Part shown: in pieces, positions 1 to 63,933 of the stretch
Layout: each line of letters begins with the position of its first letter
Position numbering within the stretch: the stretch's first letter is position 1
IMG/VR virus record: IMGVR_UViG_3300035492_000080
Span: 1-64,000 of that record
DNA from: a virus
Taxonomy: Duplodnaviria > Heunggongvirae > Uroviricota > Caudoviricetes
DNA: 64,000 nt
Strand: one strand, 5' to 3'
The notes under the pieces: generated by a model
Databases searched by the model: none
Told to the model about the DNA's origin: nothing
The model's input: the letters and a program-made list of their open reading frames with translations, nothing else
Position numbers and translations under genes: made by a program

Positions 1-168
1 AGCGCTGGGTTTTTATTGAACGTATTGACAGGGATTGGTTGAATAGTGGTGCGGCTTCTATGGAAGCGTGGATGGCCTCTGCTGATAAAGAAACACAGAA
101 AGATATGTCTTCTATGAGCCGATATGTTGTAACTTATAAGAAAGGGTCGGAGGAAATGGATGAGTAAG
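1..168 (+). CDS. partial CDS (3' end of an upstream gene, unknown function)
   Basis: Frame 3 is open from the window edge to TAA at 166-168 and overlaps the nrdA start by 8 nt; no recognisable motif. Confidence 0.3.
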
Positions 169-2007: not shown

Positions 2008-2016
2008 GGAGAAAGA

Positions 2017-6606: not shown

Positions 6607-6951
6607 ATGAGAGTTTTTATTCAGGATGATGATACATCCAATATCCAATTTGTTGAACTTGGCAGGAACTCTCGTCCAATAATTGAAAACATTGTCTCAA
6701 CACTGTTTGGAGAGAAGTATTCTAAAGAAAGTTATATAGAAAGGGATGAGGTTGCTTGCGAGGTGCCGTGGTCCAGCTGGGCGGGTGGCCGCACGACGCT
6801 GGCTGTGCAGAATGATGCGATGGATTCTCTAATCTCCGCACTTGAGGTTATTGGTGCTGAGATAGTCTTCGTTGTATGTTATGAGGAAAGGGCAGTGAAG
6901 TTTCATGAAAGACTTTATACTATTTATGACTATTCTTGGGAGGATGAATGA
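6607..6951 (+). CDS. hypothetical small protein (paralog of 3168..3476)
   Basis: 114 aa; shared MR[IV][YF]I..D/E N-terminus and xLExxGAEI[IV]F motif. Confidence 0.5.
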   Translation: MRVFIQDDDTSNIQFVELGRNSRPIIENIVSTLFGEKYSKESYIERDEVACEVPWSSWAGGRTTLAVQNDAMDSLISALEVIGAEIVFVVCYEERAVKFHERLYTIYDYSWEDE

Positions 6952-7304
6952 GCGCCACTAAAGAGAAACATCTTCGTATATTGGTTGAAAATGCAAATGT
7001 CTATGAAGCTGTTTGGGTTGCTGCATCAAATAGTGAATCCTATGAAGTGTTTGTGAATGTTCTTATCACACTCTTCGGGAAGAGTAGGATGTGGAGGATG
7101 TATTCAGGCGGTGGACTGTTTATTATAACTGATTCGGAAATGGTGGATATTGTTAAACTTTTGGAGAGTTTTGACGTACAGGTGGTTGAAATTCAACATA
7201 GTGAATTTAGTGGTGGTACATTTGAAACTTCTATTGCTAATGCTGGCGAAAAGTTTTATGATGGGTCAGCATTCATGGGACGTTTTTATGAAATTTCTTG
7301 TTGA
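6948..7304 (+). CDS. hypothetical small protein (paralog of 3473..3793)
   Basis: 118 aa; overlapping start; similarity to ORF 3473. Confidence 0.45.
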   Translation: MSATKEKHLRILVENANVYEAVWVAASNSESYEVFVNVLITLFGKSRMWRMYSGGGLFIITDSEMVDIVKLLESFDVQVVEIQHSEFSGGTFETSIANAGEKFYDGSAFMGRFYEISC

Positions 7305-7337
7305 ATATGATATTAAGTTGAGGAAAGGAAATTATTT

Positions 7338-7718
7338 ATGAAAATCGTTTGCTGCTTAGAAGATGTTGATAAAGCAACCTGGGCCTGCTATTGTGTTTTT
7401 GATGATATTTCAATTTTTCAAAGATACATGTGCTCTAGATTCAGGACTGTAGAATTTGGACCTGATCCTTATGAAACTGGTGACGGAAGTTACAAGATAG
7501 AAGGTTATAGTGGGTATATGGAAGCTTTCGTTTGTCATGATTACTACGGGACAAGTAATTGGATGGTAATTTCTAACGCCCTGATTGATGAACTTTTAGA
7601 AGAAGCAAAGTCTCTTGGATACGAAGTGAAGAAGGTCTACAAGTCTCAGACGGGAATACCTAAAGCTTCCGATGTTGTAACAGTAACAGAATTTTTAAAA
7701 TCACACTATTTAGAATAA
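7338..7718 (+). CDS. hypothetical Cys-containing protein
   Basis: 126 aa; AGGAAAGGAAAT RBS; last gene before strand switch. Confidence 0.45.
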   Translation: MKIVCCLEDVDKATWACYCVFDDISIFQRYMCSRFRTVEFGPDPYETGDGSYKIEGYSGYMEAFVCHDYYGTSNWMVISNALIDELLEEAKSLGYEVKKVYKSQTGIPKASDVVTVTEFLKSHYLE

Positions 7719-7765
7719 AAAAAAAAACCCGCCAAAAGGCGGGTTAAATTCTTATTATTTTTATT
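7716..7765. terminator. bidirectional rho-independent terminator at strand-switch
   Basis: A11-CCCGCC-AAAA-GGCGGG-TTAAATTCTTATTATTTTTATTTTT; a T-tract follows the hairpin on both strands; convergent genes on both sides. Confidence 0.6.
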
Positions 7766-8051
7766 TTTGATTCTTTGAAAGCAATTGAATCTCTTGCTCC
7801 AACAAATCATACCTTCTCTTATTAACGTAGCTGTCACTTTCCACTTTCTTTCTAAGGTCAATGAGTTCGTCCATTATTTTCTCATTCTCCTTTTCAGCCC
7901 TCTCCTGAAATTCCCTTCTTAGAGCCTCATATTCATATTCTCGTGTGGCTGATTTCGTTGCGTAGAGTATGGTTGTCCCTACCGCTACAGCTAACAATAT
8001 AGACAGTAAAGTCATCATCGCCATCAAGAAGTAATTCTGAAACTTTTGCAT
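7761..8051 (-). CDS. membrane-anchored coiled-coil protein (lysis-associated?)
   Basis: 96 aa, N-terminal TM helix then charged helical region; adjacent to lysis cassette. Confidence 0.4.
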   Translation of the reverse strand: MQKFQNYFLMAMMTLLSILLAVAVGTTILYATKSATREYEYEALRREFQERAEKENEKIMDELIDLRKKVESDSYVNKRRYDLLEQEIQLLSKNQK

Positions 8052-8086
8052 GATGGCCCTTACTCTTACCCTGTCTCCTACAGGGA

Positions 8087-8386
8087 TTAATTCTTATACT
8101 TAGCTTGCAATTCAATTTGTTTTAAGATGAGGTCCATTTTATTATTAATGTCACCAATCCTTGTATCAACAAACGAAATGATATCTTGCTTGGTAGTAAG
8201 GAGTTTCTGTTCTGTAACAGAGGTGGCTTGTAATTGATAAACCCTTTCTTCCAAAACCTGCATTCGATTGTGTTGCCACGTTATACCAAGTACAAGGAAT
8301 GGGATAAGGAATTTACCAACAGTGTCCACCATCACCTTCCAACCATCATCTTTCTCCGCTGCCATAAATTTTCTCTTTCTCTTCAA
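8087..8386 (-). CDS. membrane-anchored coiled-coil protein
   Basis: 99 aa, TM helix (FLIPFLVLGITW) then a coiled coil. Confidence 0.4.
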   Translation of the reverse strand: MKRKRKFMAAEKDDGWKVMVDTVGKFLIPFLVLGITWQHNRMQVLEERVYQLQATSVTEQKLLTTKQDIISFVDTRIGDINNKMDLILKQIELQAKYKN

Positions 8387-8651
8387 TCTGCTTTACAGCA
8401 GTGTCTAGTCTATTATTACACTCTGACACATGCTCAGCAGAGGCCACATAAGCCTCTGAGACTGCGTAGAATGCGGTTTCGTAACTATCCCCTAGCTCAC
8501 CTACAGGCTCCATCTTACAATTGCGTAGGAGGGCTTTCTGAGGGCTTACTACTAGGACAGTTTGAGTTGGCGGTGCAAGCGGCTTTGTCGAGAAGCAGCC
8601 TGACAGTACCAAGAGTGACAGCAACGTCGCTGCTATCTTCCCTATCTTCAT
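8346..8651 (-). CDS. outer-membrane spanin-like lipoprotein (Rz1-like), overlapping out of frame with i-spanin gene
   Basis: 101 aa; lipobox LLVLSGC, Pro-rich mature N-terminus; lies in a different frame across the 3' part of 8515..8982. Confidence 0.5.
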   Translation of the reverse strand: MKIGKIAATLLSLLVLSGCFSTKPLAPPTQTVLVVSPQKALLRNCKMEPVGELGDSYETAFYAVSEAYVASAEHVSECNNRLDTAVKQIEEKEKIYGSGER

Positions 8652-33443: not shown

Positions 33444-34085
33444 TCAACTAATATCTTTATAAGGATTTATTTCGAAGGTGAATCCCTTGAAATAGTCAAT
33501 CTTATCTTTCTCAACCGCTGTCTCATGCTCTAGCTTGATCTTGTTGCCAAGCTGGATCACCAAAGCCCTGTCAGACGTTCCATAACGAGCGACAAGGTAG
33601 AACTGGTAGCGTGGTAGCCATTTACTGCTTTCTCTTCGTGGGGAGGCTTTTAGGAGCTGCCAGCCTGTGTTTCTGAAGTCATCTCTGACAACATCCTGTC
33701 CACCAATCTTTGTGAAGTGGTATTCCCTAACATCACAGCCTAGGACATAGCGTTTGAAGTTGTTGAACGGGTTACGAACAGCTAACCACCAGAATCTATT
33801 TTTCCAGAGACGACTATCTGCTCCGAAGCAATTAGCATCCCACCAACCACGATGATCGCCTGTGCTACTGTCTTCGATGTTATCCCAAGGCCAGAACACT
33901 TTAGGAAATTTTTCTCGAATCCAGTAGCGGTTTGTATTATACTGAGTGAAACGTTGCTTACTGTCTTCTTCAAACTTACCGAACAATAGCATCACAGGTA
34001 CAATAAAAATTCCTGTAATCATCCCAATAAGCTGGATAAGGAAGAAAACTGTCCAGCTAAAAAGTGCAATAAAAATGTCTTTCAA
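33444..34085 (-). CDS. Trp-rich membrane-anchored protein, unknown function
   Basis: 213 aa; N-terminal TM helices, many W/R residues (GWWDANCFGAD). Confidence 0.4.
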   Translation of the reverse strand: MKDIFIALFSWTVFFLIQLIGMITGIFIVPVMLLFGKFEEDSKQRFTQYNTNRYWIREKFPKVFWPWDNIEDSSTGDHRGWWDANCFGADSRLWKNRFWWLAVRNPFNNFKRYVLGCDVREYHFTKIGGQDVVRDDFRNTGWQLLKASPRRESSKWLPRYQFYLVARYGTSDRALVIQLGNKIKLEHETAVEKDKIDYFKGFTFEINPYKDIS

Positions 34086-34332: not shown

Positions 34333-34422
34333 TGGAGGCGAGTAAAGGAATCGAACCCTCACCTGTTCATCACAAGTGGCCGGGGGTTCAAGCCCCGTTT
34401 GTACCCTTTGTAGCTACTCGCC
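34333..34422 (-). tRNA. tRNA-Ser (anticodon TGA), type II with long variable arm
   Basis: CCA encoded; acceptor GGCGAGT/ACTCGCC; anticodon stem CGGGG/CCCCG, loop CTTGAAC; T-loop TTCGATT. Confidence 0.7.
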
Positions 34423-34781
34423 TAATTTCGTGGTCTTCCATTGCCCTTATTTAAAGAGCGGAATGTTGGTGTGAGTGCATGGCAGTTTGGACAAAGAAGT
34501 CTAAGGTTTTCCTCAGAATTATTTGTATGATTACCGTCGATGTGGTCTATCTCAAGAGGGATTCTTCCAGTAAAGAGATTTACAGAATTCCAACCACAAC
34601 TTGAACACTTATTTTCATATTTAATGAATAAATATTTCCTAATGTGTGCGCTTATTGAAGTTTTCCCACGCATCCCTGTCTCTAAACCAGATTTCCATTT
34701 TTCGATATAGTCTAAATATTTCTTCTCTGCTGCAACAAGACTCTTAGCTCGTTGTAAGATAGAGTCATGTCTCCTACTCAA
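34422..34781 (-). CDS. HNH homing endonuclease
   Basis: 119 aa; CxxC...EIDHIDGNHTNNSEENLRLLCPNCH motif; inserted between tRNA genes. Confidence 0.7.
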   Translation of the reverse strand: MSRRHDSILQRAKSLVAAEKKYLDYIEKWKSGLETGMRGKTSISAHIRKYLFIKYENKCSSCGWNSVNLFTGRIPLEIDHIDGNHTNNSEENLRLLCPNCHALTPTFRSLNKGNGRPRN

Positions 34782-34816
34782 TACTCACTCTCCTATGTTG
34801 CCGCACCTTTGTAACT

Positions 34817-34905
34817 TGGCAGTGTATGAAGGATTCGAACCTTCGGGGCTGTTACACCCTACGGTTTAGCAAACCGCTACCTTCGGCCAGCTCGGTCAAT
34901 ACACT
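34817..34905 (-). tRNA. tRNA-Ser (anticodon GCT), type II
   Basis: CCA encoded; acceptor AGTGTAT/ATACACT; anticodon stem GCGGT/ACCGT, loop TTGCTAA; T-arm GAAGG-TTCGAAT-CCTTC. Confidence 0.7.
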
Positions 34906-34914
34906 ATTTAAATT

Positions 34915-34991
34915 TGGTGAGTCGCCTTGGAATCGAACCAAGTTAAGTCAGGTTAAAAGCCTGATGCCTAGCGCCGGTCGGCCAACAACTC
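34915..34991 (-). tRNA. tRNA-Lys (anticodon TTT)
   Basis: 77 nt; acceptor GAGTTGT/GCGACTC (two G-U); anticodon stem TCAGG/CCTGA, loop CTTTTAA. Confidence 0.65.
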
Positions 34992-34996
34992 ATATT

Positions 34997-35074
34997 TGGT
35001 GCCCTCAGAGAGACTCGAACTCTCAGAACCTTGTTTCTAAGACAAGTATGTATACCAAATTCCATCACAAGGGC
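34997..35074 (-). tRNA. tRNA with anticodon TAG (Leu-reading) but short variable region; isotype uncertain
   Basis: 78 nt; 7-bp acceptor, T-arm GAGAG-TTCGAGT-CTCTC, anticodon stem CTTGT/ACAAG, loop CTTAGAA. Confidence 0.5.
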
Positions 35075-35179
35075 AAATTGGCGGCGCATTTGTAAATGAT
35101 GCCAGTGCTAGCAACATCACACCAACCTACCTCGCTAGCAGGCAGTCTAGTACGCCATAAAATTGGTGATATATTATCT

Positions 35180-35266
35180 TGGTGGATGAAGGAAGGAATT
35201 GAACCTCTAGCCAAGGGCGGGCGGGTTACAGCCGCCTGATAGTAGCCATCTATCTCTACAACATCC
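35180..35266 (-). tRNA. tRNA-Tyr-like (anticodon GTA), long variable arm, irregular acceptor/D region
   Basis: Perfect anticodon stem GGCGG/CCGCC, loop CTGTAAC; T-loop TTCAATT; acceptor pairing imperfect (2 T.T). Confidence 0.45.
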
Positions 35267-35272
35267 GTTAAT

Positions 35273-35348
35273 TGGTCTAGATGGGTGGGATCGAACCACC
35301 GGCCTTCGGTTTCCAAAACCGACCGTCTACCGCTGACAATACACCTAG
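35273..35348 (-). tRNA. tRNA-Pro (anticodon TGG)
   Basis: 76 nt; acceptor CTAGGTG/CATCTAG; anticodon stem TCGGT/ACCGA, loop TTTGGAA; T-arm GGTGG-TTCGATC-CCACC. Confidence 0.7.
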
Positions 35349-35355
35349 ATAAAAT

Positions 35356-35432
35356 TGGCTGGCAATCTGCGATTCGAACGCAGCACATCGTGATTAACAG
35401 TCACGCCCCACCACCTAGGTCGGTTATTGCCA
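35356..35432 (-). tRNA. tRNA-Asn (anticodon GTT)
   Basis: 77 nt; acceptor TGGCAAT/ATTGCCA; anticodon stem CGTGA/TCACG, loop CTGTTAA; T-arm CTGCG-TTCGAAT-CGCAG. Confidence 0.7.
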
Positions 35433-35525
35433 ATAAATTAGTTACTCCGTAATGAGGAATTTGAGCATTGTTAAGAGGCTTCTCATATTCCGAAGATTTT
35501 GGTGAGCTAGCAATCACCTTCTGTT

Positions 35526-35602
35526 TGGTAGCAAGTGTGGGTAACGATCCCACCTAAACCAGCTTATGAGACTGGTGACATCACCTGACAGTCGAACTTG
35601 CT
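35526..35602 (-). tRNA. tRNA with CAT anticodon (Met, initiator or Ile-lysidine)
   Basis: 77 nt; acceptor AGCAAGT/ACTTGCT; anticodon stem CCAGT/GCTGG, loop CTCATAA; non-canonical T-loop ATCGTTA. Confidence 0.6.
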
Positions 35603-35611
35603 ATTTAAAAT

Positions 35612-35685
35612 TGGTAGCCAGAGTTGGGAACGATCCAACTTCTTTCGCTTATCAGGCGAATGTAATACCTTTATACTATCCGGCT
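35612..35685 (-). tRNA. tRNA-Ile (anticodon GAT)
   Basis: 74 nt; acceptor AGCCGGA/TCTGGCT; anticodon stem TTCGC/GCGAA, loop CTGATAA; T-arm GTTGG-ATCGTTC-CCAAC. Confidence 0.65.
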
Positions 35686-35834
35686 AAATGGTACGGCGTG
35701 CCATATAGGCGTTACCGATAGTACCATAAAATTTGGCGCTGCCATTGCTCTAGAGAGAGCAGGCTTTCCATTCACCCTTTGCACCACAACAGCTTTTAAC
35801 TGAGAGATTGTGGAAACTAGATAGCAGCATAATT

Positions 35835-35910
35835 TGGTGGCTCCCGATGGTAACGATCCATCCTCTCTTGCTTTTCAAACAAGTGCATAATCCGTCTCAG
35901 CTAGAGAGCC
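35835..35910 (-). tRNA. tRNA-Phe (anticodon GAA)
   Basis: 76 nt; acceptor GGCTCTC/GGGAGCC; anticodon stem CTTGT/GCAAG, loop TTGAAAA; T-arm GATGG-ATCGTTA-CCATC. Confidence 0.6.
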
Positions 35911-35915
35911 GTAAT

Positions 35916-35991
35916 TGGCGAGTATAACGGGAGTCGAACCCGCAACGAGCACATAGACAGTGTGCCTTCCTTCCCAGAGGAATCCATACCC
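35916..35991 (-). tRNA. tRNA-Asp (anticodon GTC)
   Basis: 76 nt; acceptor GGGTATG/TATACTC (G-U pairs); anticodon stem GCACA/TGTGC, loop CTGTCTA; T-loop TTCGACT. Confidence 0.65.
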
Positions 35992-35992
35992 A

Positions 35993-36265
35993 TTATTTAG
36001 GAATGTTTGTCCAATCTTGGCCATTAATACTTTTATTAAAGTATTTAACTTTTCTCAGTAACGCGAGGAAATCATCTCTCAACTCAAGCGGAACCATATT
36101 TACAAAGATTTTACAATCATCCAAAAATTTACGAAAAACCACCTTATTTTTAGTGGTTAAAGGTGGTCTGAGAGTATAAGAAATGGCAAACCTCTTACTG
36201 CCATCTGCACATTTACAATTGTTAGGTCTTTCACAACCAAGACAATAATACTTTGTGATACTCAT
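35993..36265 (-). CDS. small Cys-rich protein (possible zinc-binding), embedded in tRNA island
   Basis: About 90 aa from internal ATG (MSITKYYCLGCERPNNCKCADG...); the longer ORF-track version would overlap tRNA-Gly. Confidence 0.35.
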   Translation of the reverse strand: MSITKYYCLGCERPNNCKCADGSKRFAISYTLRPPLTTKNKVVFRKFLDDCKIFVNMVPLELRDDFLALLRKVKYFNKSINGQDWTNIPK

Positions 36266-36283
36266 AAGACCTCCTATCTTATT

Positions 36284-36360
36284 TGGTGCGGGTGCTCGGA
36301 TTCGAACCGAGGTCTTCTGGGTGGAAGCCAGACATAATAACCAAGCTATACAACACACGC
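36284..36360 (-). tRNA. tRNA-Gly (anticodon TCC)
   Basis: 77 nt; anticodon stem TCTGG/CCAGA, loop CTTCCAC; T-arm CTCGG-TTCGAAT-CCGAG; one acceptor mismatch. Confidence 0.6.
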
Positions 36361-36369
36361 GAATAATTT

Positions 36370-36461
36370 GAACATGCTGGGAATCGAACCCAGATTACCA
36401 TTAGCACGGAATCGAACCGTGTCTTCGGCCTGCGCAAAACCGTACACCAAGTATCATGCTC
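36370..36461 (-). tRNA. unusual 92-nt tRNA-like element with two tandem T-arm-like hairpins; no encoded CCA
   Basis: 7-bp acceptor GAGCATG/CATGTTC pairs across 92 nt; hairpins CACGG-TTCGATT-CCGTG and CTGGG-TTCGATT-CCCAG; anticodon arm not confidently assignable. Confidence 0.35.
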
Positions 36462-36466
36462 AAAAT

Positions 36467-36540
36467 TGGTGCCCCATCACAGAATCGAACTGCGTTCACG
36501 GCGTTACAAAGGCCGGGTAATACCAATATACGAAAAGGGC
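36467..36540 (-). tRNA. tRNA-Thr (anticodon TGT)
   Basis: 74 nt; anticodon stem CGGCC/CGCCG (C.C closing), loop TTTGTAA; T-loop TTCGATT; acceptor GCCCTTT/ATGGGGC 6 of 7. Confidence 0.5.
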
Positions 36541-36554
36541 AAATAAACTAAATT

Positions 36555-36629
36555 TGGTTGGAGCCAGAGATTCGAACTCTCCTTCCGAGGTCACAACCCA
36601 GCGTGCTATCCGCTAACACTAAACTCCAC
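36555..36629 (-). tRNA. tRNA-His (anticodon GTG) with extra 5' G(-1)
   Basis: Acceptor TGGAGTT/GGCTCCA preceded by G; D stem GTGT/GCAC; anticodon stem CTGGG/CTCGG (G-U pairs), loop TTGTGAC. Confidence 0.6.
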
Positions 36630-36635
36630 ACTGTT

Positions 36636-36712
36636 TGGCGCTCCCTGCTGGACTCGAACCAGCAACATTCCGCTTAGAAGGCGGAAAGTCTATCCAATTG
36701 ACCTAAGAGAGC
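36636..36712 (-). tRNA. tRNA-Arg (anticodon TCT)
   Basis: 77 nt; acceptor GCTCTCT/AGGGAGC; anticodon stem TCCGC/GCGGA, loop CTTCTAA; T-arm GCTGG-TTCGAGT-CCAGC. Confidence 0.7.
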
Positions 36713-42637: not shown

Positions 42638-42882
42638 ACGAGCCAACAATTCTTGAGTGGTGGGAAGAGTGTCAGAAGAGGCTCCCACCAAGAACCAATC
42701 AAATTGGCAGTAAGCTTTTCATGTATATGAAAATCACTGTAATAGAAATTCCTAACAAGGCCTGCTATAATTATCTTGCAGCCTGCGGGTACAGGTGTAA
42801 TCGGAATGGTGAGATGTTACTTTCTGTAAAAGAGTACGATGAGTATATTTCATTTCAAAAAATGATGCTGGAGGGAAAATAG
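42625..42882 (+). CDS. hypothetical protein
   Basis: 85 aa. Confidence 0.3.
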   Translation: MFGLDEPTILEWWEECQKRLPPRTNQIGSKLFMYMKITVIEIPNKACYNYLAACGYRCNRNGEMLLSVKEYDEYISFQKMMLEGK

Positions 42883-43688
42883 TGATTAAATATGAGCTGA
42901 GATGTTCCACATATTTCGTGGATACGATGAAGTTCCCCGGTGGGGAGGTGGGTGTTCGCTTGCCTTCTCCAAAGCATATGAGCGGCGACATCAAGCTTAC
43001 TGCCCACTTGAAAAATAGTGACAATGTGATGCAGTTGCTGATGACTGTGGATGCTATTCGTCGTAATCATCCCGGCTCGAAGATTCATGCAACAATCCCT
43101 TACATCCCATACGCACGGCAAGACCGCGTATGTAATCAGGGTGAGAGTTTAAGTATTGCTGTGATGGCCTCGCTCATTAATTCATGCAAATTTGACACTG
43201 TGACCACGCTTGATCCACACTCAGACGTTGTAGGTGCTCTCATCAACAATCTTGAAATCATCGAACAACATGATATTTTCCAGTGTGTGAAAACATCTTG
43301 GGAAAACACTCACATTGTTGCCCCTGATGGTGGCGCATACAAGAAATGTATGAAGTTTGCACAACGTGTAGGAGCTGCTGGGGTAATTGTCTGTAACAAG
43401 GTGAGAAACCTCAAGACCGGACAGATTGAGAGCCTCACTTGTAGTGAAAATGTTGGAGGAAAAGAGCTTTTTGTTCTAGATGACATTTGTGATGGTGGTA
43501 GAACCTTCGTCGAACTTGCTCAGGAGCTAAAAGGGGCAAAGAGTATTTCTCTGGCGGTGACACACGGAATTTTCTCAAAAGGTGTGGAAGTTGTTGCAAA
43601 GCATTTTGACACTGTGTACACTACCAACTCATTCCACGGCAATGAGCTGCCAGAAGATTGGGCAGATGTTGTGCAGATTAATTATTAA
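42882..43688 (+). CDS. prs: ribose-phosphate pyrophosphokinase (PRPP synthetase)
   Basis: 268 aa; PRPP-binding loop VLDDICDGGRTF, PYARQDR motif. Confidence 0.8.
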   Translation: MIKYELRCSTYFVDTMKFPGGEVGVRLPSPKHMSGDIKLTAHLKNSDNVMQLLMTVDAIRRNHPGSKIHATIPYIPYARQDRVCNQGESLSIAVMASLINSCKFDTVTTLDPHSDVVGALINNLEIIEQHDIFQCVKTSWENTHIVAPDGGAYKKCMKFAQRVGAAGVIVCNKVRNLKTGQIESLTCSENVGGKELFVLDDICDGGRTFVELAQELKGAKSISLAVTHGIFSKGVEVVAKHFDTVYTTNSFHGNELPEDWADVVQINY

Positions 43689-43697
43689 GGAGGGATA

Positions 43698-45245
43698 ATG
43701 AAACTACGGGCCGCAACCGTCACCGACGGATATAAAGTAGGTCACGGCAACATGTATGCCGATGGCACTGAAAAAGTATATAGCAACCTCACCCCACGGA
43801 GTGATAAAATTTATCTTCGAAATGCCACAAAATTTTATGATGGAAAATTGGTTTTTGTAGGTGCTCAGGGTGCTGTTCAAGAAATTCAAGAAATGTGGCA
43901 TCAAACATTTTTTGATATTCCAGCTATCGTGGCTGTCAGTGAATATGCCCGCCGTATGGCCACCTATCTTGGTGGAGAGGTGAAAGCAACTGAACAGCTG
44001 AATGAACTTCACAAGCTCGGTTATCTGCCGCTGGAGATTAAGGCTCTGCCGGAAGGTAGTAAGGTGAAGATGGGCATTCCTGTGATGACAATTACCAACA
44101 CTGATAGTCGCTTCTTCTGGCTTGTCAACTATCTGGAAACTGTTATCAGTAATCTGGTGTGGAAACCATCCACTAACGCAACGATTGCTGCTGAATACAA
44201 AGCAATTTGTGAGCATTACGGCAAACTGACTGGAATGGACGAATTCTCCATTTCTATTCAATGCCATGACTTCTCCATGCGTGGTATGTCTGGTCCTGAA
44301 GATGCTGCCCGGAGTGGCTTTGCACACCTGATAAGTTTTATTGGAACCGACACTCTACCGGCAATGGATTATGCAGAAATGTATTATGATGCTGATCCAG
44401 AAAGTTTGATTGCTATTTCTGTCCCGGCAACGGAACATGCTGTAGCTACAAATAATATCCTATATCTGGAACAGGGTGTACAGGTTATTCCAACAGGTTG
44501 GGATGTTCGCAAGGTAGCTGAGTTGCGCTTCATGCAAGACCTTATCACACGCAAATATCCAACCGGCATTGTGAGCTATGTTGCAGATAGCTTTGACTTT
44601 TGGTCGGTAGTTACTGAGATTGTGCCTTCTCTGAAAGAAGTTATCCTTTCTCGTGAAGCGAATGGTGCAGCTCCCGGTAAGTTGGTGATTCGCCCTGACT
44701 CCGGTGATCCTGTGAAAGTTATTTGTGGAGATGTTGGTGCTCCGATTGGTTCCCCTGAATTTAAAGGTGCTGTTGAGTGCCTGTGGGAAACCTTTGGCGG
44801 AACTGAAACCTCCACTGGCTATAAGCTTCTGGACAGTCACATTGGCCTGATCTACGGTGACAGTATCACCACACAGCGTTGCGAAGAGATTCTTCGCCGT
44901 TTGCAAGAAAAAGGCTTTGCTTCTGGTAATGTGGTGTTTGGTGTTGGAAGTTATACTTATCAGTGTAACACCCGTGACACTTTCGGTTTTGCTGTTAAGG
45001 CAACATACTCTGAAGTTAATGGTGTTCCTGTGAACATTTTTAAAGACCCGAAAACAGATAGCAAGAAGAAGAGTGCAAAAGGGCTTCTGTGTGTTGAACG
45101 TGATGAAGATGGTGAATTCAAGCTGTATGATGAAGTTAGTAAAACAGCAGAACTTGAAGGTTATCTGTACACCATTTTCAAAGATGGTGAGTGGGTGAAG
45201 CGCACAAATCTTGAAGAAATTCGGAGCCGTCTGGTATGGGAGTGA
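43698..45245 (+). CDS. nadV: nicotinamide phosphoribosyltransferase (NAMPT / NadV)
   Basis: 515 aa; length and conserved blocks of NAPRTase family, directly after prs. Confidence 0.8.
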   Translation: MKLRAATVTDGYKVGHGNMYADGTEKVYSNLTPRSDKIYLRNATKFYDGKLVFVGAQGAVQEIQEMWHQTFFDIPAIVAVSEYARRMATYLGGEVKATEQLNELHKLGYLPLEIKALPEGSKVKMGIPVMTITNTDSRFFWLVNYLETVISNLVWKPSTNATIAAEYKAICEHYGKLTGMDEFSISIQCHDFSMRGMSGPEDAARSGFAHLISFIGTDTLPAMDYAEMYYDADPESLIAISVPATEHAVATNNILYLEQGVQVIPTGWDVRKVAELRFMQDLITRKYPTGIVSYVADSFDFWSVVTEIVPSLKEVILSREANGAAPGKLVIRPDSGDPVKVICGDVGAPIGSPEFKGAVECLWETFGGTETSTGYKLLDSHIGLIYGDSITTQRCEEILRRLQEKGFASGNVVFGVGSYTYQCNTRDTFGFAVKATYSEVNGVPVNIFKDPKTDSKKKSAKGLLCVERDEDGEFKLYDEVSKTAELEGYLYTIFKDGEWVKRTNLEEIRSRLVWE

Positions 45246-45697
45246 TGAGATATCGTCAAGGCGACCTTATCCAAGCTCTGAAGAATGGGGAGGTGGGTGT
45301 AATAGCTCACCAAGCCAACTGCATGAATACAATGGGAAGTGGGGTTGCAAAAGCTATCCGTGAAAACTTCCCTGAAGCATATGCGGCAGATTGCGAGACA
45401 GAGCGGGGAGATGCCGATAAACTTGGCAACTATACTTTTGCAGAGAATGAGCATGGGTTGATTTTTAATCTATACGGGCAGTATAATTATGGTCGAGATG
45501 GTGCTCACTATACTCAACTGGCCTCTCTTGAAGAAGCTCTTGAGAATATGGCAATATACTTGACGGATATTGGCTATAAAGGTAAAGTGGGAATCCCGAA
45601 GCTCGGTTGCGGGTTGGGAGGTGCTGATTGGAACCAAGTAGCTCGTGTAGTTTCTCGTGCTCTTGATAACTTTGAAGTGATTGTTTATTCAATTTAA
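45236..45697 (+). CDS. macro-domain protein (ADP-ribose binding / hydrolase family)
   Basis: 153 aa; IAHQANCMNTMGSGVAKAI and KLGCGLGG glycine-rich motifs; overlaps nadV stop. Confidence 0.6.
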   Translation: MGVMRYRQGDLIQALKNGEVGVIAHQANCMNTMGSGVAKAIRENFPEAYAADCETERGDADKLGNYTFAENEHGLIFNLYGQYNYGRDGAHYTQLASLEEALENMAIYLTDIGYKGKVGIPKLGCGLGGADWNQVARVVSRALDNFEVIVYSI

Positions 45698-51730: not shown

Positions 51731-51992
51731 AAGTGAGAGTGGATCACATTGGACTCTGTTCAAGATTGACTTGCCGGACAATTGCAAGAATGCCCTGACC
51801 ACTGCTGGAATACTAAATACAAGACAAAGATTTATATTCCCGGACACTGTTGGTACTAAGGAGAGAGTTTCAAACATCCTATCTATGCTTGATATCTCAG
51901 TTGTGTGGGAACAAACGGCTAGCGTGTCCGATGTATGGAATTATTATCAATCACAATACCTAGCATTGGAAGACACGGACAGTGATAATTGA
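51711..51992 (+). CDS. hypothetical protein
   Basis: 93 aa. Confidence 0.3.
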   Translation: MVIQSYKSESGSHWTLFKIDLPDNCKNALTTAGILNTRQRFIFPDTVGTKERVSNILSMLDISVVWEQTASVSDVWNYYQSQYLALEDTDSDN

Positions 51993-52503
51993 AACAATCA
52001 ATGAACAGACAGGTGAGATATTATTTGAATGGGATGAGGAGGTGTCTTACAAATCTCCAAAACCAACACCTCCGCTGGACGGTGTGTATGATGAAGACAC
52101 ACTCAAGAAATACTGCTCAGACCCATCTAGGAAATCTAGGGGAGATATTGGCTATCTAGTGGACTTCCTCTCAACAGGAGGAATTACTCAGGTGGATATG
52201 CTTGTACTAAAAACTCTCTGTTTAGATGTACAGATTCACAACTTTGCTGTATCTTCTCTTCCAAGAATAGCTTCAAACATCTCTTACACAGAGAGGGCTG
52301 TCAGAGGAAGTATCAAACACCTGCAATCGGTAAACCTCCTAAAAGTGGTGAATACTCGCTTCTACGAAGATGGAACTCCCTACACACTCTACTGGATACA
52401 CCCTAAAATTGCTTTCAAGGGTAGTTATTTTAAGTGGCGGATTTCTTGTGCAGAGAATGACATCACCTCCCTGTACACCCCTCTAAACACCTACGAAATA
52501 TGA
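51982..52503 (+). CDS. hypothetical protein (last gene of plus-strand block)
   Basis: 173 aa. Confidence 0.35.
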   Translation: MIIETINEQTGEILFEWDEEVSYKSPKPTPPLDGVYDEDTLKKYCSDPSRKSRGDIGYLVDFLSTGGITQVDMLVLKTLCLDVQIHNFAVSSLPRIASNISYTERAVRGSIKHLQSVNLLKVVNTRFYEDGTPYTLYWIHPKIAFKGSYFKWRISCAENDITSLYTPLNTYEI

Positions 52504-52505
52504 AT

Positions 52506-52523
52506 GTGGAAAAAAATTTCCAC
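52506..52523. repeat. perfect palindrome GTGGAAAAAAATTTCCAC
   Basis: Seen directly after stop of 51982..52503. Confidence 0.6.
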
Positions 52524-52736
52524 ATTCTCCCCTGTAGCCCTCTAAAATCAGGGGGGTCTAGTTGGCACATATATAATAACACCTGTTTCCCGCTCTTCAT
52601 ATTGCATACCCAATATATTGCAATTCCCCTCATATTGCCCTTCCTAATTTCTCTATTTTTTTTTTTCTAAAAATTCAAATAGGGACATTCCATATTAGCT
52701 GATCTTCCATATTGGAAATATCCAATCCTCCTTACA

Positions 52737-52778
52737 CCCAATCGGGGTTTCTTATTAGGTTTCTCATTGGGTTTCTTA
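52737..52778 (+). repeat. three tandem units GGTTTCT(T/C)ATT
   Basis: GGGGTTTCTTATTAGGTTTCTCATTGGGTTTCTTATT. Confidence 0.5.
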
Positions 52779-53190
52779 TTTTCCGCGAGTATTACTATGA
52801 GTGTTTAGCCACCCTCCAGGGTGAATTCCCACTACTAACATAATTTTAAAATATCCACTAGTAAAAATCCAATTGTATTTACTAATTACATCAATTCATA
52901 TTGATAGACAACCTCTATTTGAATAGTGTCCTCATATTATAGGTGGCTTCTATTGTGTACAGCATATTGATAGACAACATATATTGGAATGTGAACATTC
53001 AATTTATCAAACATCATGCCAACTCCCCATATTGGGTGGTCAATACTCATATTGTATTTATCTATTATATTGGGTGTATTACATAAAGGATTTATATTGA
53101 ATTGTGGCATATATGTTGCTTATGTTTATTATTAGATATAATTATATGTTTTAAGTGTGTAATAAATAAAGTTAATAAGTGGGTGGGCTT

Positions 53191-53280
53191 AACCAATGCC
53201 TACCATTACTAACCAATAGGCGTTATTATTAACCAATGCCTACAATTACTAACCAATTATGGGAATTACTAACCCGACAA
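53191..53280 (+). repeat. four and a half tandem 20-bp iterons beginning AACCAAT, flanked by AT-rich DNA
   Basis: AACCAATGCCTACCATTACT / AACCAATAGGCGTTATTATT / AACCAATGCCTACAATTACT / AACCAATTATGGGAATTACT / AACCCGACAA. Confidence 0.7.
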
Positions 53281-53490
53281 GGTATTTATTAACTAAATGG
53301 CCGTTATTATTAACAATTACACAAAAACAATAAAGCGGGGGAGCATATTGGAGGGAGTTGCATATTGGACAGCCTTTCATATTGTGTTGTGCATATTGGC
53401 TGTAATGCTTGTATATTGCGGGCTGTGGGGCATTCTGAGGGGGGTAGAATGCACGTTCTGTGCTAACTAGTGGGTATGTATTGGGAGGCA

Positions 53491-53518
53491 ATAAAAAGGC
53501 CCGCCAAAGGGGCGGGCC
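53491..53518 (-). terminator. rho-independent terminator for minus-strand small-gene block
   Basis: GGCCCGCC-aaagg-GGCGGGCC hairpin with TTTTTAT on minus strand. Confidence 0.55.
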
Positions 53519-53535
53519 ATTGTTTTGTGTATTGT

Positions 53536-53781
53536 TTATTGACTAGCTTTACAGTGTTCACACTCACACGGCTTAATGTCTTTCACACTTTCTAGAAAGT
53601 CTTTTGTATTGCTTTCATGTATGCAATGAACCTCCCCAGCAATCCACCCCTTTTTAAGGGCCACCCATATCGAATACGGAGTTTCCCCATAACCGTCCTC
53701 CTCTGTCCAATACTCCTCTATGATGTTGGCGTTCTTATCAATCCATGCCTTAATTGCTTTGGATATCTTGTGGCTTCGCAT
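53536..53781 (-). CDS. hypothetical small Cys/His-containing protein
   Basis: 81 aa; C-terminal CECEHC. Confidence 0.35.
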   Translation of the reverse strand: MRSHKISKAIKAWIDKNANIIEEYWTEEDGYGETPYSIWVALKKGWIAGEVHCIHESNTKDFLESVKDIKPCECEHCKASQ

Positions 53782-56962: not shown

Positions 56963-57163
56963 TCAGAATGATTCCTCGCCTTGGATAAATGCCCCGTCCG
57001 AACGTTTAACCAGCAGCTCACCATTGGCCAGCTCATACAATCCGACACGACAGGGACCGGCAAAGGTGCGAATTGCCACAGGCTCACCATAAAGCCAGTT
57101 TTCATCGCTGGCCGTGGTCACGGCGATTTTGATTTTGTCACTGAAAAAAGGAATAGTTTTCAT
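56963..57163 (-). CDS. hypothetical protein
   Basis: 66 aa. Confidence 0.3.
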   Translation of the reverse strand: MKTIPFFSDKIKIAVTTASDENWLYGEPVAIRTFAGPCRVGLYELANGELLVKRSDGAFIQGEESF

Positions 57164-58325: not shown

Positions 58326-58345
58326 ACTATTAGTGAGCTAATAGT
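58326..58345. promoter_or_regulatory. perfect inverted repeat ACTATTAG-tgag-CTAATAGT (operator-like)
   Basis: Read directly; lies in intergenic region upstream of the minus-strand small-gene block. Confidence 0.5.
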
Positions 58346-58381
58346 GCGCCAGCTATCGACAGCTAACTAATTATTGCCTAG

Positions 58382-58407
58382 CTATTAATTAGCCTCCTAT
58401 TAATTAG
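58382..58407. promoter_or_regulatory. two copies of near-palindromic CTATTAATTAG (plus related CTAACTAATTA upstream)
   Basis: gCTATTAATTAGcctcCTATTAATTAGttgg. Confidence 0.5.
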
Positions 58408-58527
58408 TTGGCTAATTTTTGGTGACGATCCCAGCAAATTCCTTCCTGTTCAATACAAAAAGAGAGAAGACACTTTCATCCTCTCTCTTATCAAAAGCGC
58501 CACGTTCATAATTTCTCTCGATCAAAA

Positions 58528-58610
58528 CCTATCGAGTATTAATTTCCAGCGCGAGAAACCTATCGAGTATTAATTTCTCTCGACCAAAATCTATCGAGTA
58601 TTAAAATTTC
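58528..58610 (+). repeat. three direct repeats CCTATCGAGTATTAAT(T)TTC at 31-32 bp spacing, each flanked by a CTCGA..TCGAG inverted half-site
   Basis: Copies at 58528-58546, 58559-58577 and 58591-58610; tctCTCGATcaaaacctATCGAGtat palindromic arrangement. Confidence 0.6.
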
Positions 58611-58953
58611 AAGTGGCAACAGTCTGCTTGTTGAGGGCCATATCGTCTTTTACCTTCGACAAGAAAGCTCTTTCATCAACATCTTGATAGTCAATAACTA
58701 CCACTTGAACCTCTGGGAAATCAGACCTGATTTGGTCCAGTGCTCTTGTAAAGTTATACTCATCATCTATTTCATAATCTAGGCACCCGTGGTCTGGGTA
58801 CACCGTCTTTTCAATCGGTTTGCTTAGAAGTGAATTAAATAAATTCTGTGCGTAGTCATCGCTCATTGTGATGAACGGATAAACCACATGCTTATCAATG
58901 TAGATTTTGTGCAATCGAAACCTCCAACAGGGCGGACTAAAATATCCGCCCAT
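58609..58953 (-). CDS. hypothetical protein
   Basis: 114 aa. Confidence 0.35.
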   Translation of the reverse strand: MGGYFSPPCWRFRLHKIYIDKHVVYPFITMSDDYAQNLFNSLLSKPIEKTVYPDHGCLDYEIDDEYNFTRALDQIRSDFPEVQVVVIDYQDVDERAFLSKVKDDMALNKQTVAT

Positions 58954-59019
58954 TTTTCATGGGCCTATTAAAATATCCAAGTAAAAATATCCTGCCAAAC
59001 AAGTATCCGGCCAAGTATC

Positions 59020-59367
59020 CTAACCAGCAATTACCATATTAACTCCCAAGGCTGAACTTACCGCTTCAACAAAAGCTTCATATATTATTCCTTTATCAAA
59101 TTGGAGTTCAGCTTCTACAGGGACTACCAGCAGCTTAAATCCAGCGGACTCAACCATATCCCTTAGTTGAAAAATCTGATCAAAATGTATAACACACACT
59201 TTAGGGAAGATAATACTCTCAGGATCAACCAGATATCCGGGAAGGGGACCATCTTCTGATGAACCACCAATCATATGGATTATGTTTTTCAGTTCATGGT
59301 TTGGAGAAGATGCGAATGGAATTGAAGAATGTGATTCAACAAACAGCCTGATAACTGGTTCGCTCAT
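59020..59367 (-). CDS. hypothetical protein
   Basis: 115 aa. Confidence 0.35.
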   Translation of the reverse strand: MSEPVIRLFVESHSSIPFASSPNHELKNIIHMIGGSSEDGPLPGYLVDPESIIFPKVCVIHFDQIFQLRDMVESAGFKLLVVPVEAELQFDKGIIYEAFVEAVSSALGVNMVIAG

Positions 59368-62680: not shown

Positions 62681-63163
62681 CTAAATTACAGGTGGCTGCT
62701 CGGGCCGCGCTATGGGGGCGGCGTAGAGCTTTCGGATTTCCCAAACGTCCGGCAACCCTTTTGCCAGCTGCTGAGCGTTGGCTTCTGCACACCACGCGGC
62801 GCGCTCGGCAGTGCTGTCTTGCCACCAGCGTTCCTCTACTTTCTGCCCTGGCAGGTATCGCACTTGCCACTGCTCCACCGGCTGCTGCTCGGGCGTGTTA
62901 GCTTTGCTAACGTTCTGCGCGGCGTTGGTTTCTAGGCGCGCTTCAACCTTACCGAGTAGTTCCATCATGTATTCAGCAGAATCGTGGTTTCCGCCTTCGG
63001 CATATATCTCGACGACCAAATTAAGCAGATCGTTTAGCTCGGGGTCTGCAACGTTGAAGGCGTCGCGCCGCTCATCCTGCGGCGGAGGAATAGCAGGGCT
63101 GTTTTCCTGCTGAGTGGCGGAGAGCAATTCAACCAGTTCCTCATCCTCTTCTTTCGAATTCAT
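62681..63163 (-). CDS. hypothetical acidic protein (GC-rich)
   Basis: About 160 aa from ATG at 63163 preceded by AGGAGA; the longer ORF-track version would overlap the upstream gene. Confidence 0.4.
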   Translation of the reverse strand: MNSKEEDEELVELLSATQQENSPAIPPPQDERRDAFNVADPELNDLLNLVVEIYAEGGNHDSAEYMMELLGKVEARLETNAAQNVSKANTPEQQPVEQWQVRYLPGQKVEERWWQDSTAERAAWCAEANAQQLAKGLPDVWEIRKLYAAPIARPEQPPVI

Positions 63164-63567
63164 ATTATCTCTCCTATACAAGCATTTCTGATAGTCGTTC
63201 GGTGAGTCTTGCTCGGCTGATCGCCATGCTTCTTGAGTGGGTATGTAATCCCCCACCAACTAGCAATACCTTCACCAAGAGATGCACGATCAATGGGATT
63301 TGGGCTATAACCCCGCTTCACCGCTTCCTGACACAAAGCATAGTAGCGATTGGCTATGAATTCAAGCTTTTCATAGAAAAATAGCACATGGCCAGTTCCC
63401 ATTGTATAGGAAGTTGGCTGCTTGAGTTTCTTCTTCATGTTGTAGCGGTTGATCTTGCGATCTTGAGCTTTCCTCACTAAGCCAAACACACGAGTGATTT
63501 CATGTATCTCACCCATCAAATGTTTGTTGTGCAGCTCAGCAGGAGGAACAAGATTAATCCGTGTCAC
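63160..63567 (-). CDS. denV: pyrimidine-dimer DNA glycosylase (T4 endonuclease V / DenV-like)
   Basis: 135 aa; MTRINLVPPAELHNKHLMGEIHEITRVFGLVRK closely matches the T4 endo V N-terminus including catalytic Thr2 and Glu23. Confidence 0.75.
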   Translation of the reverse strand: MTRINLVPPAELHNKHLMGEIHEITRVFGLVRKAQDRKINRYNMKKKLKQPTSYTMGTGHVLFFYEKLEFIANRYYALCQEAVKRGYSPNPIDRASLGEGIASWWGITYPLKKHGDQPSKTHRTTIRNACIGEII

Positions 63568-63633
63568 TACTCATCTCCTTTCTTATGCTTCTTCTTACGA
63601 TTGTATTTACTCTTGTCCCTGTGTGTAGACGGT

Positions 63634-63933
63634 TTATTCAACCGCTCCATATACTTCTTTACGAAATTTCTTGCCATTAAAATATAACACCTCCATGCTA
63701 ACATCAAGACACTTGATAGTTTCTATTATGTTTTCAAGCTTCCTAACATCCTTGTCCGTTTCAACATAAATTTCAAAACTCTGTGAAAGCTCTCCCATAG
63801 AGCTATTGAAGAAACTATTATAGCCCATTGCACTTAAAATATTACTAACTTCATGCCTTCGGTTGGCGATTGTTATGATGCTATCACCGACACCAACATT
63901 ATTTTTCAACTGAATCTTGACATCACAGGACAT
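63634..63933 (-). CDS. hypothetical protein
   Basis: 99 aa. Confidence 0.3.
   Translation of the reverse strand: MSCDVKIQLKNNVGVGDSIITIANRRHEVSNILSAMGYNSFFNSSMGELSQSFEIYVETDKDVRKLENIIETIKCLDVSMEVLYFNGKKFRKEVYGAVE

Follow-up and report, generated by a model that had tools for sequence, protein, structure and literature searches.

The subject of this report is a gene-free gap of 1,032 bp at positions 52504-53535 of a phage DNA window, the window being the whole stretch analysed here (64,000 nt, positions 1 to 64,000 of the IMG/VR virus record IMGVR_UViG_3300035492_000080). On balance we favour, with some reserve, reading the gap as a conserved, non-coding, protein-binding DNA module for genome replication and packaging, and it is best explained as neither a gene, nor an RNA, nor a promoter cluster. 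As to the parts of this reading, the chance that the genome ends lie within the gap seems about even from sequence and analogy, and a replication origin there is plausible, short of probable. By analogy the two are compatible and can share one gap, as proposed for ICP1. Among the four functions offered in the preliminary description of this DNA, packaging and a replication origin stay viable, and a promoter cluster and a partition site are unsupported. The edges of the gap are as that description gave them, namely an open reading frame (ORF) at 51982-52503 on the plus strand and another at 53536-53781 on the minus strand. Its further statement that no ORF of any length lies between them fails literally, as mechanical ORFs of up to 80 aa exist, but none is retained in relatives, and no ORF within the gap is common to the window and the two close relatives L142 and L143.

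The window is part of a tailed-phage genome and is 100% identical to an 89,218-bp metagenome contig of the Joint Genome Institute (JGI), and likewise to a Logan contig. A 127-bp overlap (window 57036-57162) joins both ends of the JGI contig into a circular assembly of ~89.1 kb, and the window runs across this arbitrary break. The genome-wide counts given here took in 81.4 kb of the ~89.1-kb genome. Overall, they show that one short word is concentrated in the gap. YATATTG occurs there 16 times on the plus strand (11 CATATTG and 5 TATATTG) and once on the minus strand, all within 52598-53419, close to the earlier count of about 17 same-orientation copies of CATATTG(G); two additional CATATTA are located at 52691 and 52933. 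Among the 16 exact CATATTG of the 81.4 kb, 11 fall in the 1,032-bp gap, all of them on the plus strand within 52598-53398, and the window as a whole has 14. Outside the gap, the two strands of 80.4 kb together hold 5 CATATTG and 13 TATATTG, and in the window's other 63 kb YATATTG is found 6 times on the plus and 7 times on the minus strand. At the outside rate the gap is expected to have 0.03 plus-strand copies of CATATTG (P~9e-25) and 0.12 of YATATTG (Poisson P~4e-29); the dense packing noted in the preliminary description is real. The gap's own dinucleotide model expects 0.28 + 0.50 copies. A k-mer scan ranks CATATTG first, with about 335-fold enrichment, and the 16:1 orientation bias has a binomial p of 2.7e-4. 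The consensus does not extend past YATATTG, the typical spacing is 14-20 bp, and the lone reverse copy is half of a head-to-head pair, CAATATATTG. A scan of the 81 kb for shared 10-mers finds no second copy or partner site of the gap module. The copies form three arrays:

52598-52714, plus strand: array A, four YATATTG and one CATATTA, the first three 16-17 bp apart, including CAATATATTG; Tandem Repeats Finder (TRF) reports period 17.
52897-53100, plus strand: array B, seven YATATTG and one CATATTA, including the duplicated 16-mer CATATTGATAGACAAC (52897 and 52963).
53344-53419, plus strand: array C, five YATATTG at spacings of 17, 17, 14 and 20 bp.

The conservation of these arrays supports reading them as protein-binding sites. 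The comparison set is small: the close relatives number three and the distant ones four to five, and part of the contigs are truncated. The 173-aa protein encoded directly left of the gap has only two further 90%-identity clusters among 5.8 billion proteins. L142, whose version of this protein is 79% identical, has a gene-free gap of 1,081 bp, and L143, at 56% identity, one of 1,009 bp, both between converging genes. The alignment of the three gaps has 73% column identity; many small genes around the gap cannot be aligned among the three phages, and the NadV and ligase genes are 82-86% identical. Within the alignment, 85 of 112 heptamer columns (76%) are invariant, compared with 436 of 920 (47%) in the rest of the gap (p=1e-8). 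The gaps of L142 and L143 have 13 and 16 YATATTG, mostly at matched positions, while the spacers drift. In array B, the two relatives have a heptamer at 13 of the 14 aligned positions of seven sites, with C or T as the first base and one CCTATTG allowed; site 52897 is an alignment gap in L143, yet L143 has the same CATATTGATAG at 10884. In array C, all five positions are kept in both, the last one reading TGTATTG there. The leftmost array of L142 is locally inverted at 1470-1500, with two CAATATG copies, and orientation in array A is therefore not absolutely fixed. Besides the heptamers, near-invariant sequence is found in CTATGrGTGyTTAGCCACCC...AGGGyGAATTCCCACTA...AAAATATCCACTA, in GTAATAAA..AATTAATrAGTGG..GGGCTTAACCAwT, and in TTGTTTTGTGTATTGTTT.

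As a separate observation, CATATTG is about 3-fold under-represented outside the gap, with 5 copies observed and 13-17 expected under Markov orders 1-4, a shortage that TATATTG does not show. The pattern only hints at selection against ectopic sites; the depletion is not seen again in 19.5 kb of L143 flanks.

The distant relatives show the same layout with a different word. A profile of three neighbour proteins, searched against 1.84 billion representatives, finds ten further distant homologues, and six contigs were read. Where the contig is long enough, the common layout is a ligase/DUF7390 block, the winged-helix gene (the counterpart of the 173-aa gene), a gene-free stretch, and then minus-strand small genes. 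In some relatives the gap is set off from the winged-helix gene by a homing endonuclease or by one or two small genes; HNH genes, for example, are inserted directly after the winged-helix gene in L156 and L157. The gene-free stretch is 0.6-1.3 kb long; that of L160 is smaller and broken by one called ORF. Its blocks come in a constant order: first a C-rich or G-run dyad, a T-run, the box G(Y)TTARCC, AAAATATCC and a short-word array, thereafter an A+T-rich segment, the box GCTTAAC(C/A)A, ACACAnAAACAAT, a second array, and a hairpin terminator followed by TGTATTGTTT. This ordered set follows the winged-helix gene in six lineages of uncultured phages. The arrayed word differs among them, being AATAATG in L157 (10 forward, 0 reverse), CATAACA in L159 (ATAACA 9/0) and CAATGAG in L158 (7/0); in L160, the most distant relative, box 1 itself is repeated four times. 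To judge from these sequences, close relatives keep the arrayed word fixed and distant ones exchange it entirely, while the array stays and keeps its single orientation relative to the winged-helix gene. A slowly evolving GYTTARCCA box, amplified into iterons in some lineages, thus stands against a fast-switching one-way heptamer, and two recognition systems are therefore suggested. The idea of a protein-binding array is supported by the higher share of invariant columns, the retained copy number and the replacement of the word as a whole with its array and orientation kept.

Other searches gave little. Searching 50,697 phage records with the nucleotide sequence of the gap, for near as well as distant similarity, gives zero matches, and the window too is without nucleotide similarity to deposited phages. 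When IMG/VR is scanned by protein for the genes on either side of the gap, no match is found, and for the ligase only distant loci are found, which lack the gap. Exact patterns of the conserved blocks have no match among viral and metagenome contigs, and a gapped pattern of three CATATTG returns more than 120 unrelated tandem repeats from viral contigs, which is uninformative. Contig ends within the gap in L144, L156 and L158 were considered as physical termini and dropped; they coincide with homopolymers or repeats.

Besides the arrays, the gap is composed of the following elements:

52502-52527: inverted repeat GTGGAAAAAAATTTCCAC, whose 11-bp arms GAATGTGGAAA/TTTCCACATTC are 4 nt apart and which overlaps the plus-strand gene at its stop codon.
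52538-52579, plus strand: left-edge block, an imperfect dyad CCCTCTAAAATCAGGGGGG and then the -10-like ACATATATAATAA without a -35 element.
52643-52710, plus strand: T11 run (52656-52666) and then CTAAAAATTCAAATAGGGACATTCCATATTAGCTGATC, 85% A+T, near-invariant in the three phages.
52744-52780, plus strand: three tandem GGTTTCT(T/C)ATT units (TRF period 12, 2.9 copies).
52795-52862, plus strand: deeply conserved block with box 1 GTTTAGCCA (52803-52811), the dyad CACCCTCCAGGGTG (52810-52823), GAATTCCCACTA and AAAATATCC (52848-52856).
53101-53180: A+T-rich segment, 78-85% A+T, a candidate unwinding element.
53159-53197, plus strand: conserved block GTAATAAA..AATTAATAAGTGGGTGGGCTTAACCAAT, with box 2 GCTTAACCA at 53187-53195.
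53190-53330, plus strand: iteron block, seven TAAC-phased 20-bp units, four of them bearing TAACCAAT (box 2 amplified).
53319-53335, plus strand: conserved ACACAAAAACAATAAAG, with a similar sequence in L157.
53430-53452: hairpin GCATTCT-N9-AGAATGC, kept in L143 with another loop and replaced by another hairpin in L142.
53498-53518: bidirectional intrinsic terminator with an 8-bp G+C stem and T-rich tails on both strands.
53520-53537, plus strand: right-edge block, for which L157 has a similar TGTATTGTTT.

The T11 run, the three GGTTTCT(T/C)ATT units, the duplicated 16-mer and the 20-bp iterons are thus all present as described earlier. What had been called a perfect palindrome, GTGGAAAAAAATTTCCAC, is actually an inverted repeat with its arms apart; it lacks a plus-strand T-tail, is partly retained in L142 and is absent in L143. 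ACATATATAATAA is invariant in the window, L142 and L143, with comparable blocks in L156, L157 and L159, and a promoter scan calls no promoter in its block. T-runs of 6-17 are found in the gaps of relatives, and those of L156, L157 and L158 are 12-17 long at an equivalent early position. The GGTTTCT(T/C)ATT triplication is a window-specific expansion, because L142 and L143 hold a single copy. Box 1 and AAAATATCC are also found in L142, L143, L157, L158 and L159; L160 has only the box-1-like GTGTTTAGCC and AAAATATCG, and the box-1 regular expression is unmatched there. The A+T-rich segment is at the same place in L142, L143, L158 and L159, and box 2 is present in L142, L143, L159 and L160, with a variant in L157. 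For the iteron block, TRF (period 20 and 40) confirms the first ~3.4-4 units only, at 53190-53274, and units 5-7 (TAACCCGA, TAACTAAA, TAACAATT) were identified by reading the sequence. The terminator stem differs in L142 and L143 with its pairing kept by compensatory changes, and its plus-strand T-tract is invariant; akin hairpins are located at the right edge in L157 and in the phage VCM.

The window has the following gene order:

160-3039, plus strand: ribonucleotide reductase.
About 8-34 kb, minus strand: lysis, tail, head and terminase genes.
34333-36712, minus strand: 14 clustered tRNA genes, which separate the terminase region from the metabolic block.
38.4-52.5 kb, plus strand: DNA/nucleotide-metabolism block with PhoH, a ClpP-like protease, phosphoribosyl pyrophosphate (PRPP) synthetase, NadV, RNA ligase and DNA ligase.
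43698-45245, plus strand: NadV; small genes fill the 7.3 kb from here to the gap.
51982-52503, plus strand: 173-aa winged-helix gene, the end of the plus block and the constant left neighbour of the gap.
53536-53781, minus strand: 81-aa gene, the final member of a ~13-kb minus-strand small-gene block abutting the gap, without conservation in L142 and L143.

By its gene content the phage is a virulent Felix O1/PAK_P1-like myovirus. Its nearest cultured relatives are Pseudomonas phages of Otagovirus, Pakpunavirus and Nankokuvirus, with 56-60% identity in NadV and 50% in the large terminase subunit (TerL), the best TerL matches being Nankokuvirus terminases (100% coverage, E=4e-146). Some further observations concern the surroundings of the gap. 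At 42882-45697, PRPP synthetase, NadV and a Macro-domain phosphatase make up a module for NAD+ salvage beside RNA ligase and DNA ligase, as in PaP1 and PAK_P1-like phages. NadV is intact in the window, and in L143 (2117-4258) it is split by a ~650-bp insertion with a NUMOD4/HNH_3 endonuclease ORF, which is by its sequence an intron or homing endonuclease. The 213-aa ORF directly upstream of TerL (33444-34085) belongs to DUF7338 / phrog_2143 and is a candidate small terminase subunit by position. Within the minus-strand small-gene block, two places are rich in repeats: 58330-58610, with three CTATCGAGTATTAAT(T)T at ~31-bp spacing and two TATTAATTAG, and 58935-59020, with five (A/G)TATCC, three of which are AAATATCC. 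The (A/G)TATCC core at the latter place matches the core of the AAATATCCA copies in the gap (52716 and 52849). The early block may use these repeats as operators or promoters.

For the genome ends, the closest precedent is PaP1, which has a terminal redundancy of 1,190 bp mapped by run-off sequencing (PMC3652863). In the PaP1 record, the block of NadV (6742-8430, minus strand), PRPP synthetase, RNA ligase and DNA ligase reaches position 499 on the minus strand, and the opposite block ends at 89,883. The redundancy sits in the resulting 2.3-kb junction, on the same side of NadV and at the same distance from it as the gap of the window. The order is NadV, small genes and junction, as in the window; VCM is arranged alike, and has a 1.3-kb gap at the same junction with a G+C hairpin at the right edge. 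In PAK_P3, the termini (a direct terminal repeat, by PhageTerm) are at about 63 kb (PMC13510664), and this position coincides with a 921-bp gene-free gap at 62,818-63,738. The PAK_P3 termini region is described as lacking both genes and transcription, and a 14-kb Hi-C loop spanning the early genes has one of its anchors there, for which a factor like a nucleoid-associated protein (NAP) is proposed (PMC13510664); no non-coding RNA (ncRNA) is reported there by ONT-cappable-seq. One-way short words are also present in the PAK_P3 gap and in the PaP1 and VCM junctions, for example CCCCAG (8/0), CCCATG (7/0), ATGACAAG (4/0) and CTCTATGAG (4/0). As in the window, the NadV/ligase block of PaP1 and VCM runs into a gene-poor junction (1.3-2.3 kb); in PAK_P3 the predicted termini are in a gene-free gap of 0.9 kb, and all three places have oriented short repeats. 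Unlike in the window, the words differ, the repeats are less regular, and the flanks of the PAK_P3 gap are co-directional. We also note a dyad, GATAGC-N3-4-GCTATC, which is repeated several times in both PaP1 (HQ832595, 90.2-91.6 kb) and VCM (NC_029065, 97.3-97.6 kb) and absent from the gap of the window; it is possibly a common operator of these two junctions.

Two phages outside this group add to the comparison. The concatemer junction of T7, checked directly, is a gene-free 739 bp made of the right-end non-coding sequence, the 160-bp repeat and the left-end non-coding sequence. It contains 13 CCTAAAG forward and none in reverse, plus variants, at 12-25 bp spacing with small dyads interspersed. 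Like the window, T7 has a gene-free junction with one oriented heptamer, 13/0 against 16/1; in T7 the copies lie within the repeat and to either side of it. T7 is however a podovirus with a repeat of only 160 bp, has the phiOL, phiOR and A0 promoters in its junction, uses another word, and is without an iteron block or a winged-helix gene. Dunn and Studier, in 1983, reportedly named the arrays flanking the T7 terminal repeat SRL and SRR; to our knowledge, the role of these oriented heptamer arrays is unsettled. ICP1, a virulent myovirus, has a 1.3-kb ORF-less space with a pac site or terminus beside a predicted rolling-circle origin (PMC7145576). The gap of the window resembles this space in being gene-free, and in ICP1 the space links replication and packaging (PMC7145576). 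ICP1 is predicted to package by the headful mode, and its sequence is unrelated; the likeness concerns the gene-free layout.

The proposal that the genome ends lie in the gap rests on the positional synteny with PaP1, the predicted termini of PAK_P3, the relatedness of the terminases, the circular assembly and the T7-like design of the arrays. Several points weigh against it. No sequence is common to the gap of the window and those of PaP1, PAK_P3 and VCM, no winged-helix homologue is found near the latter three, and the PaP1 repeat has ORFs within it; the synteny argument is therefore positional only. TerL is just 50% identical to the terminases of phages with known repeats, so that a shared packaging mode is likely, not certain. 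The circular assembly is expected of a collapsed repeat, and headful packaging of a permuted genome fits it equally. The same holds for the assembled contigs, which continue across the gap.

Three things speak for an origin: an A+T-rich core adjoining the amplified boxes, a winged-helix neighbour that is constant and scores to replication families, and the likeness of arrays B and C around the core to the origins of Staphylococcus aureus pathogenicity islands (SaPIs). The neighbour is, as modelled, certainly a DNA-binding protein. Its AlphaFold model from a 12-sequence alignment, which replaced an earlier shallow model (predicted local distance difference test, pLDDT, 57), has a pLDDT of 83.5; in it a small beta/alpha part forms the N terminus, and residues 65-140 fold as a canonical winged helix. 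Across the family, Pfam gives HTH_36 in 3 of 12 sequences (best 5.5e-9), RepL in 3 of 12 (best 1.2e-6) and DnaD_N in one, with MarR, CggR_N and others too. A profile search of PDB sequences gives generic winged-helix matches only. The recognition helix differs between the window and L143 though both use YATATTG, and for this reason we tentatively pair the neighbour with the GYTTARCCA boxes and iterons, and not with the heptamers. As readers of the heptamers, IHF, Chi, the strand bias of Type III restriction sites and primase sites were considered and rejected, either by sequence misfit or by the lineage-variable word.

SaPI origins have 6-12 short (5-6 nt) element-specific iterons 3' of the initiator gene, an A+T-rich centre and a winged-helix reader (PMC9371898). 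They need at least two opposed iterons per side, and the initiator is a helicase with a C-terminal winged helix (PMC9371898). The window is alike in having two repeat sets, arrays B and C, round an A+T-rich centre downstream of a gene encoding a winged helix. It is unlike them in that SaPI origins are far shorter and the window has a third array 400 bp away; moreover, the gap shows no opposed iterons, and no helicase domain is seen in the 173-aa neighbour. Iteron origins of lambda and theta plasmids have ~20-bp direct repeats in helical phase, an A+T-rich neighbour, and a winged-helix initiator encoded beside or over the repeats. The window again has such an A+T-rich, unwinding-type segment beside iterons, and this segment is conserved. 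It differs in that its iterons are poorly conserved, DnaA boxes are not enriched, and the dominant repeat is a 7-mer at 14-20 bp. As for direct repeats of 17-22 bp in three or more copies, the window has its seven 20-bp-phased units, L142 has four at ~31 bp, and L143 has essentially none, namely one unit and two ACGTTATAGCC.

Against an origin, and against the module reading as a whole, stand the following observations. The iteron block is the least conserved part of the gap and is unconserved in L143. The DnaA box TTATCCACA, with at most one mismatch, is found 18 times in the window where 18.4 are expected, and once in the gap. The heptamers all point one way, whereas SaPI origins require opposed iterons. 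A convergent junction is an unusual location for an origin. The Pfam replication-family scores are weak, and the winged-helix fold resembles that of transcription regulators no less than that of initiators. The difference in the recognition helix between the window and L143, despite their common word, is a further point of this kind. GC skew tracks gene orientation and is uninformative for the origin.

Among the rival explanations, the one that survives best is an origin and nothing else: a winged-helix initiator would bind boxes, iterons or heptamers and melt the A+T-rich segment, with the ends elsewhere or the genome permuted. We consider this unlikely. It accounts for an A+T-rich core which is flanked by direct-repeat arrays and lies directly 3' of a winged-helix gene scoring to the RepL, HTH_36 and DnaD_N families, for the SaPI-ori-like layout, and for a lineage-specific turnover of repeats, which is typical of initiator-iteron pairs. 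It is opposed by L143, which is without conserved iterons, by the unenriched DnaA boxes and the one-way heptamers, and by the placement of array A and the left conserved blocks 400 bp from the core. In addition, Pfam and fold cannot separate initiators from regulators, and the related phages have their terminal repeat in a comparable gene-poor gap, in PaP1 at the same junction.

The arrays may instead be structural, with a nucleoid-associated or repressor-like protein coating them to anchor a loop or to block read-through, and with no direct role in replication or packaging. Their place between two converging blocks fits this, as does the gene-free, untranscribed termini region of PAK_P3, which anchors the 14-kb Hi-C loop and for which a NAP-like factor is proposed. 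However, a strong bidirectional terminator already divides the blocks, and this explanation does not account for the A+T-rich core, the iterons or the initiator-like neighbour. It is improbable in our view. As the Hi-C anchor of PAK_P3 coincides with its termini, loop anchoring is not clearly a separate function.

Lower still we rank a transcript of the plus strand, either a long ncRNA or a 3' untranslated region of ~930 nt, which would run from the TATAAT at 52572-52577 or by read-through to the terminator and offer its 16 CAUAUUG as a sponge. Such an RNA would suit the strict strand bias, the perfect conserved TATAAT, the invariant plus-strand T-tract of the terminator, and the lack of any plus-strand intrinsic terminator ahead of 53498. 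Yet the TATAAT has no -35 element and no promoter call, the fold z-scores are weak (-2.3 with 20 shuffles, and -1.4), L142 has two inverted copies, and the equivalent gap of PAK_P3 is reported as untranscribed with no ncRNA mapped. A Rfam search of the gap gives no match better than E=0.47. We hold such a transcript quite improbable.

The remaining explanations have very small chances. Phage T5 has a repeat-rich non-coding region at the inner edge of its terminal repeat, and a T5-like signal for stopping ejection after a first-step transfer would likewise be gene-free, rich in repeats and dyads, and adjoin a block of small, probably early genes; but the gap lies at the 3' end of the small-gene block, not between early genes and the remaining genome, and two-step DNA transfer is not in evidence for this phage group, so that we hold it very improbable. 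A cluster of phage-specific or sigma70 promoters could draw on the -10-like CATATT and the TTG of the word and on the one conserved TATAAT, and is scarcely credible when sigma70-like sites number 4 against 6.9 expected, the word is not upstream of genes elsewhere (5 scattered copies in 80 kb), every copy would direct transcription into gene-free DNA and against the block that converges on it, and 14-20 bp is too tight a spacing for independent promoters. The partition (centromere-like) site of a plasmid-prophage deserves equally little belief: P1 parS carries heptamer boxes, which the short oriented arrays resemble, but no ParA/ParB family is found among the Pfam-annotated genes (contig 1-13.6, 45.2-67.0 and 74.7-89.2 kb; in the structural region, large ORFs only), and the genes are those of a virulent Felix O1/PAK_P1-like myovirus.

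Returning to the replication and packaging module, we can propose how its parts would work. The heptamer arrays would be loading sites at which a lineage-specific DNA-binding factor coats the DNA directionally, and the winged-helix protein would bind the GYTTARCCA boxes and the iterons adjoining the A+T-rich segment. A direct terminal repeat, giving the virion DNA ends, would lie inside the gap, as suggested by synteny with PaP1 and PAK_P3 and by the related terminase. In that case the terminase may find the concatemer junction by the arrays, in the manner of the CCTAAAG arrays round the terminal repeat of T7, and the core of A+T-rich segment, iterons and winged-helix gene may be the origin, or the site where the repeat is opened and duplicated.

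A bolder version, which we regard as rather doubtful, is that each lineage has a polar 'address code', its own word of 7-8 bases in 10-16 one-way copies beside the genome end. A fast-co-evolving phage protein, virion-borne or early, would read the word and load directionally. It would set the direction of the packaging motor, or anchor the loop of early genes that Hi-C shows in PAK_P3, or both. If true, the address code would be a phage counterpart of orienting sequences of the type of KOPS (FtsK-orienting polar sequences) and parS, and would explain the heptamer arrays of T7.

Gene-free, repeat-dense junctions occur in many virulent phages, and their parts are rarely assigned. The phages compared here offer a natural experiment on such a junction, one architecture in at least six lineages, with the word switching while the two boxes and the winged-helix neighbour stay. 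The system separates two proposed recognition pairs: one would join the 173-aa protein to the boxes and iterons, the other a co-evolving factor to the heptamers. If the genome ends map to the gap, the ordered blocks would provide a sequence signature for termini and origins in uncultured Felix O1/PAK_P1-like genomes, and would connect them to the 2026 observation of a Hi-C loop anchor in PAK_P3.

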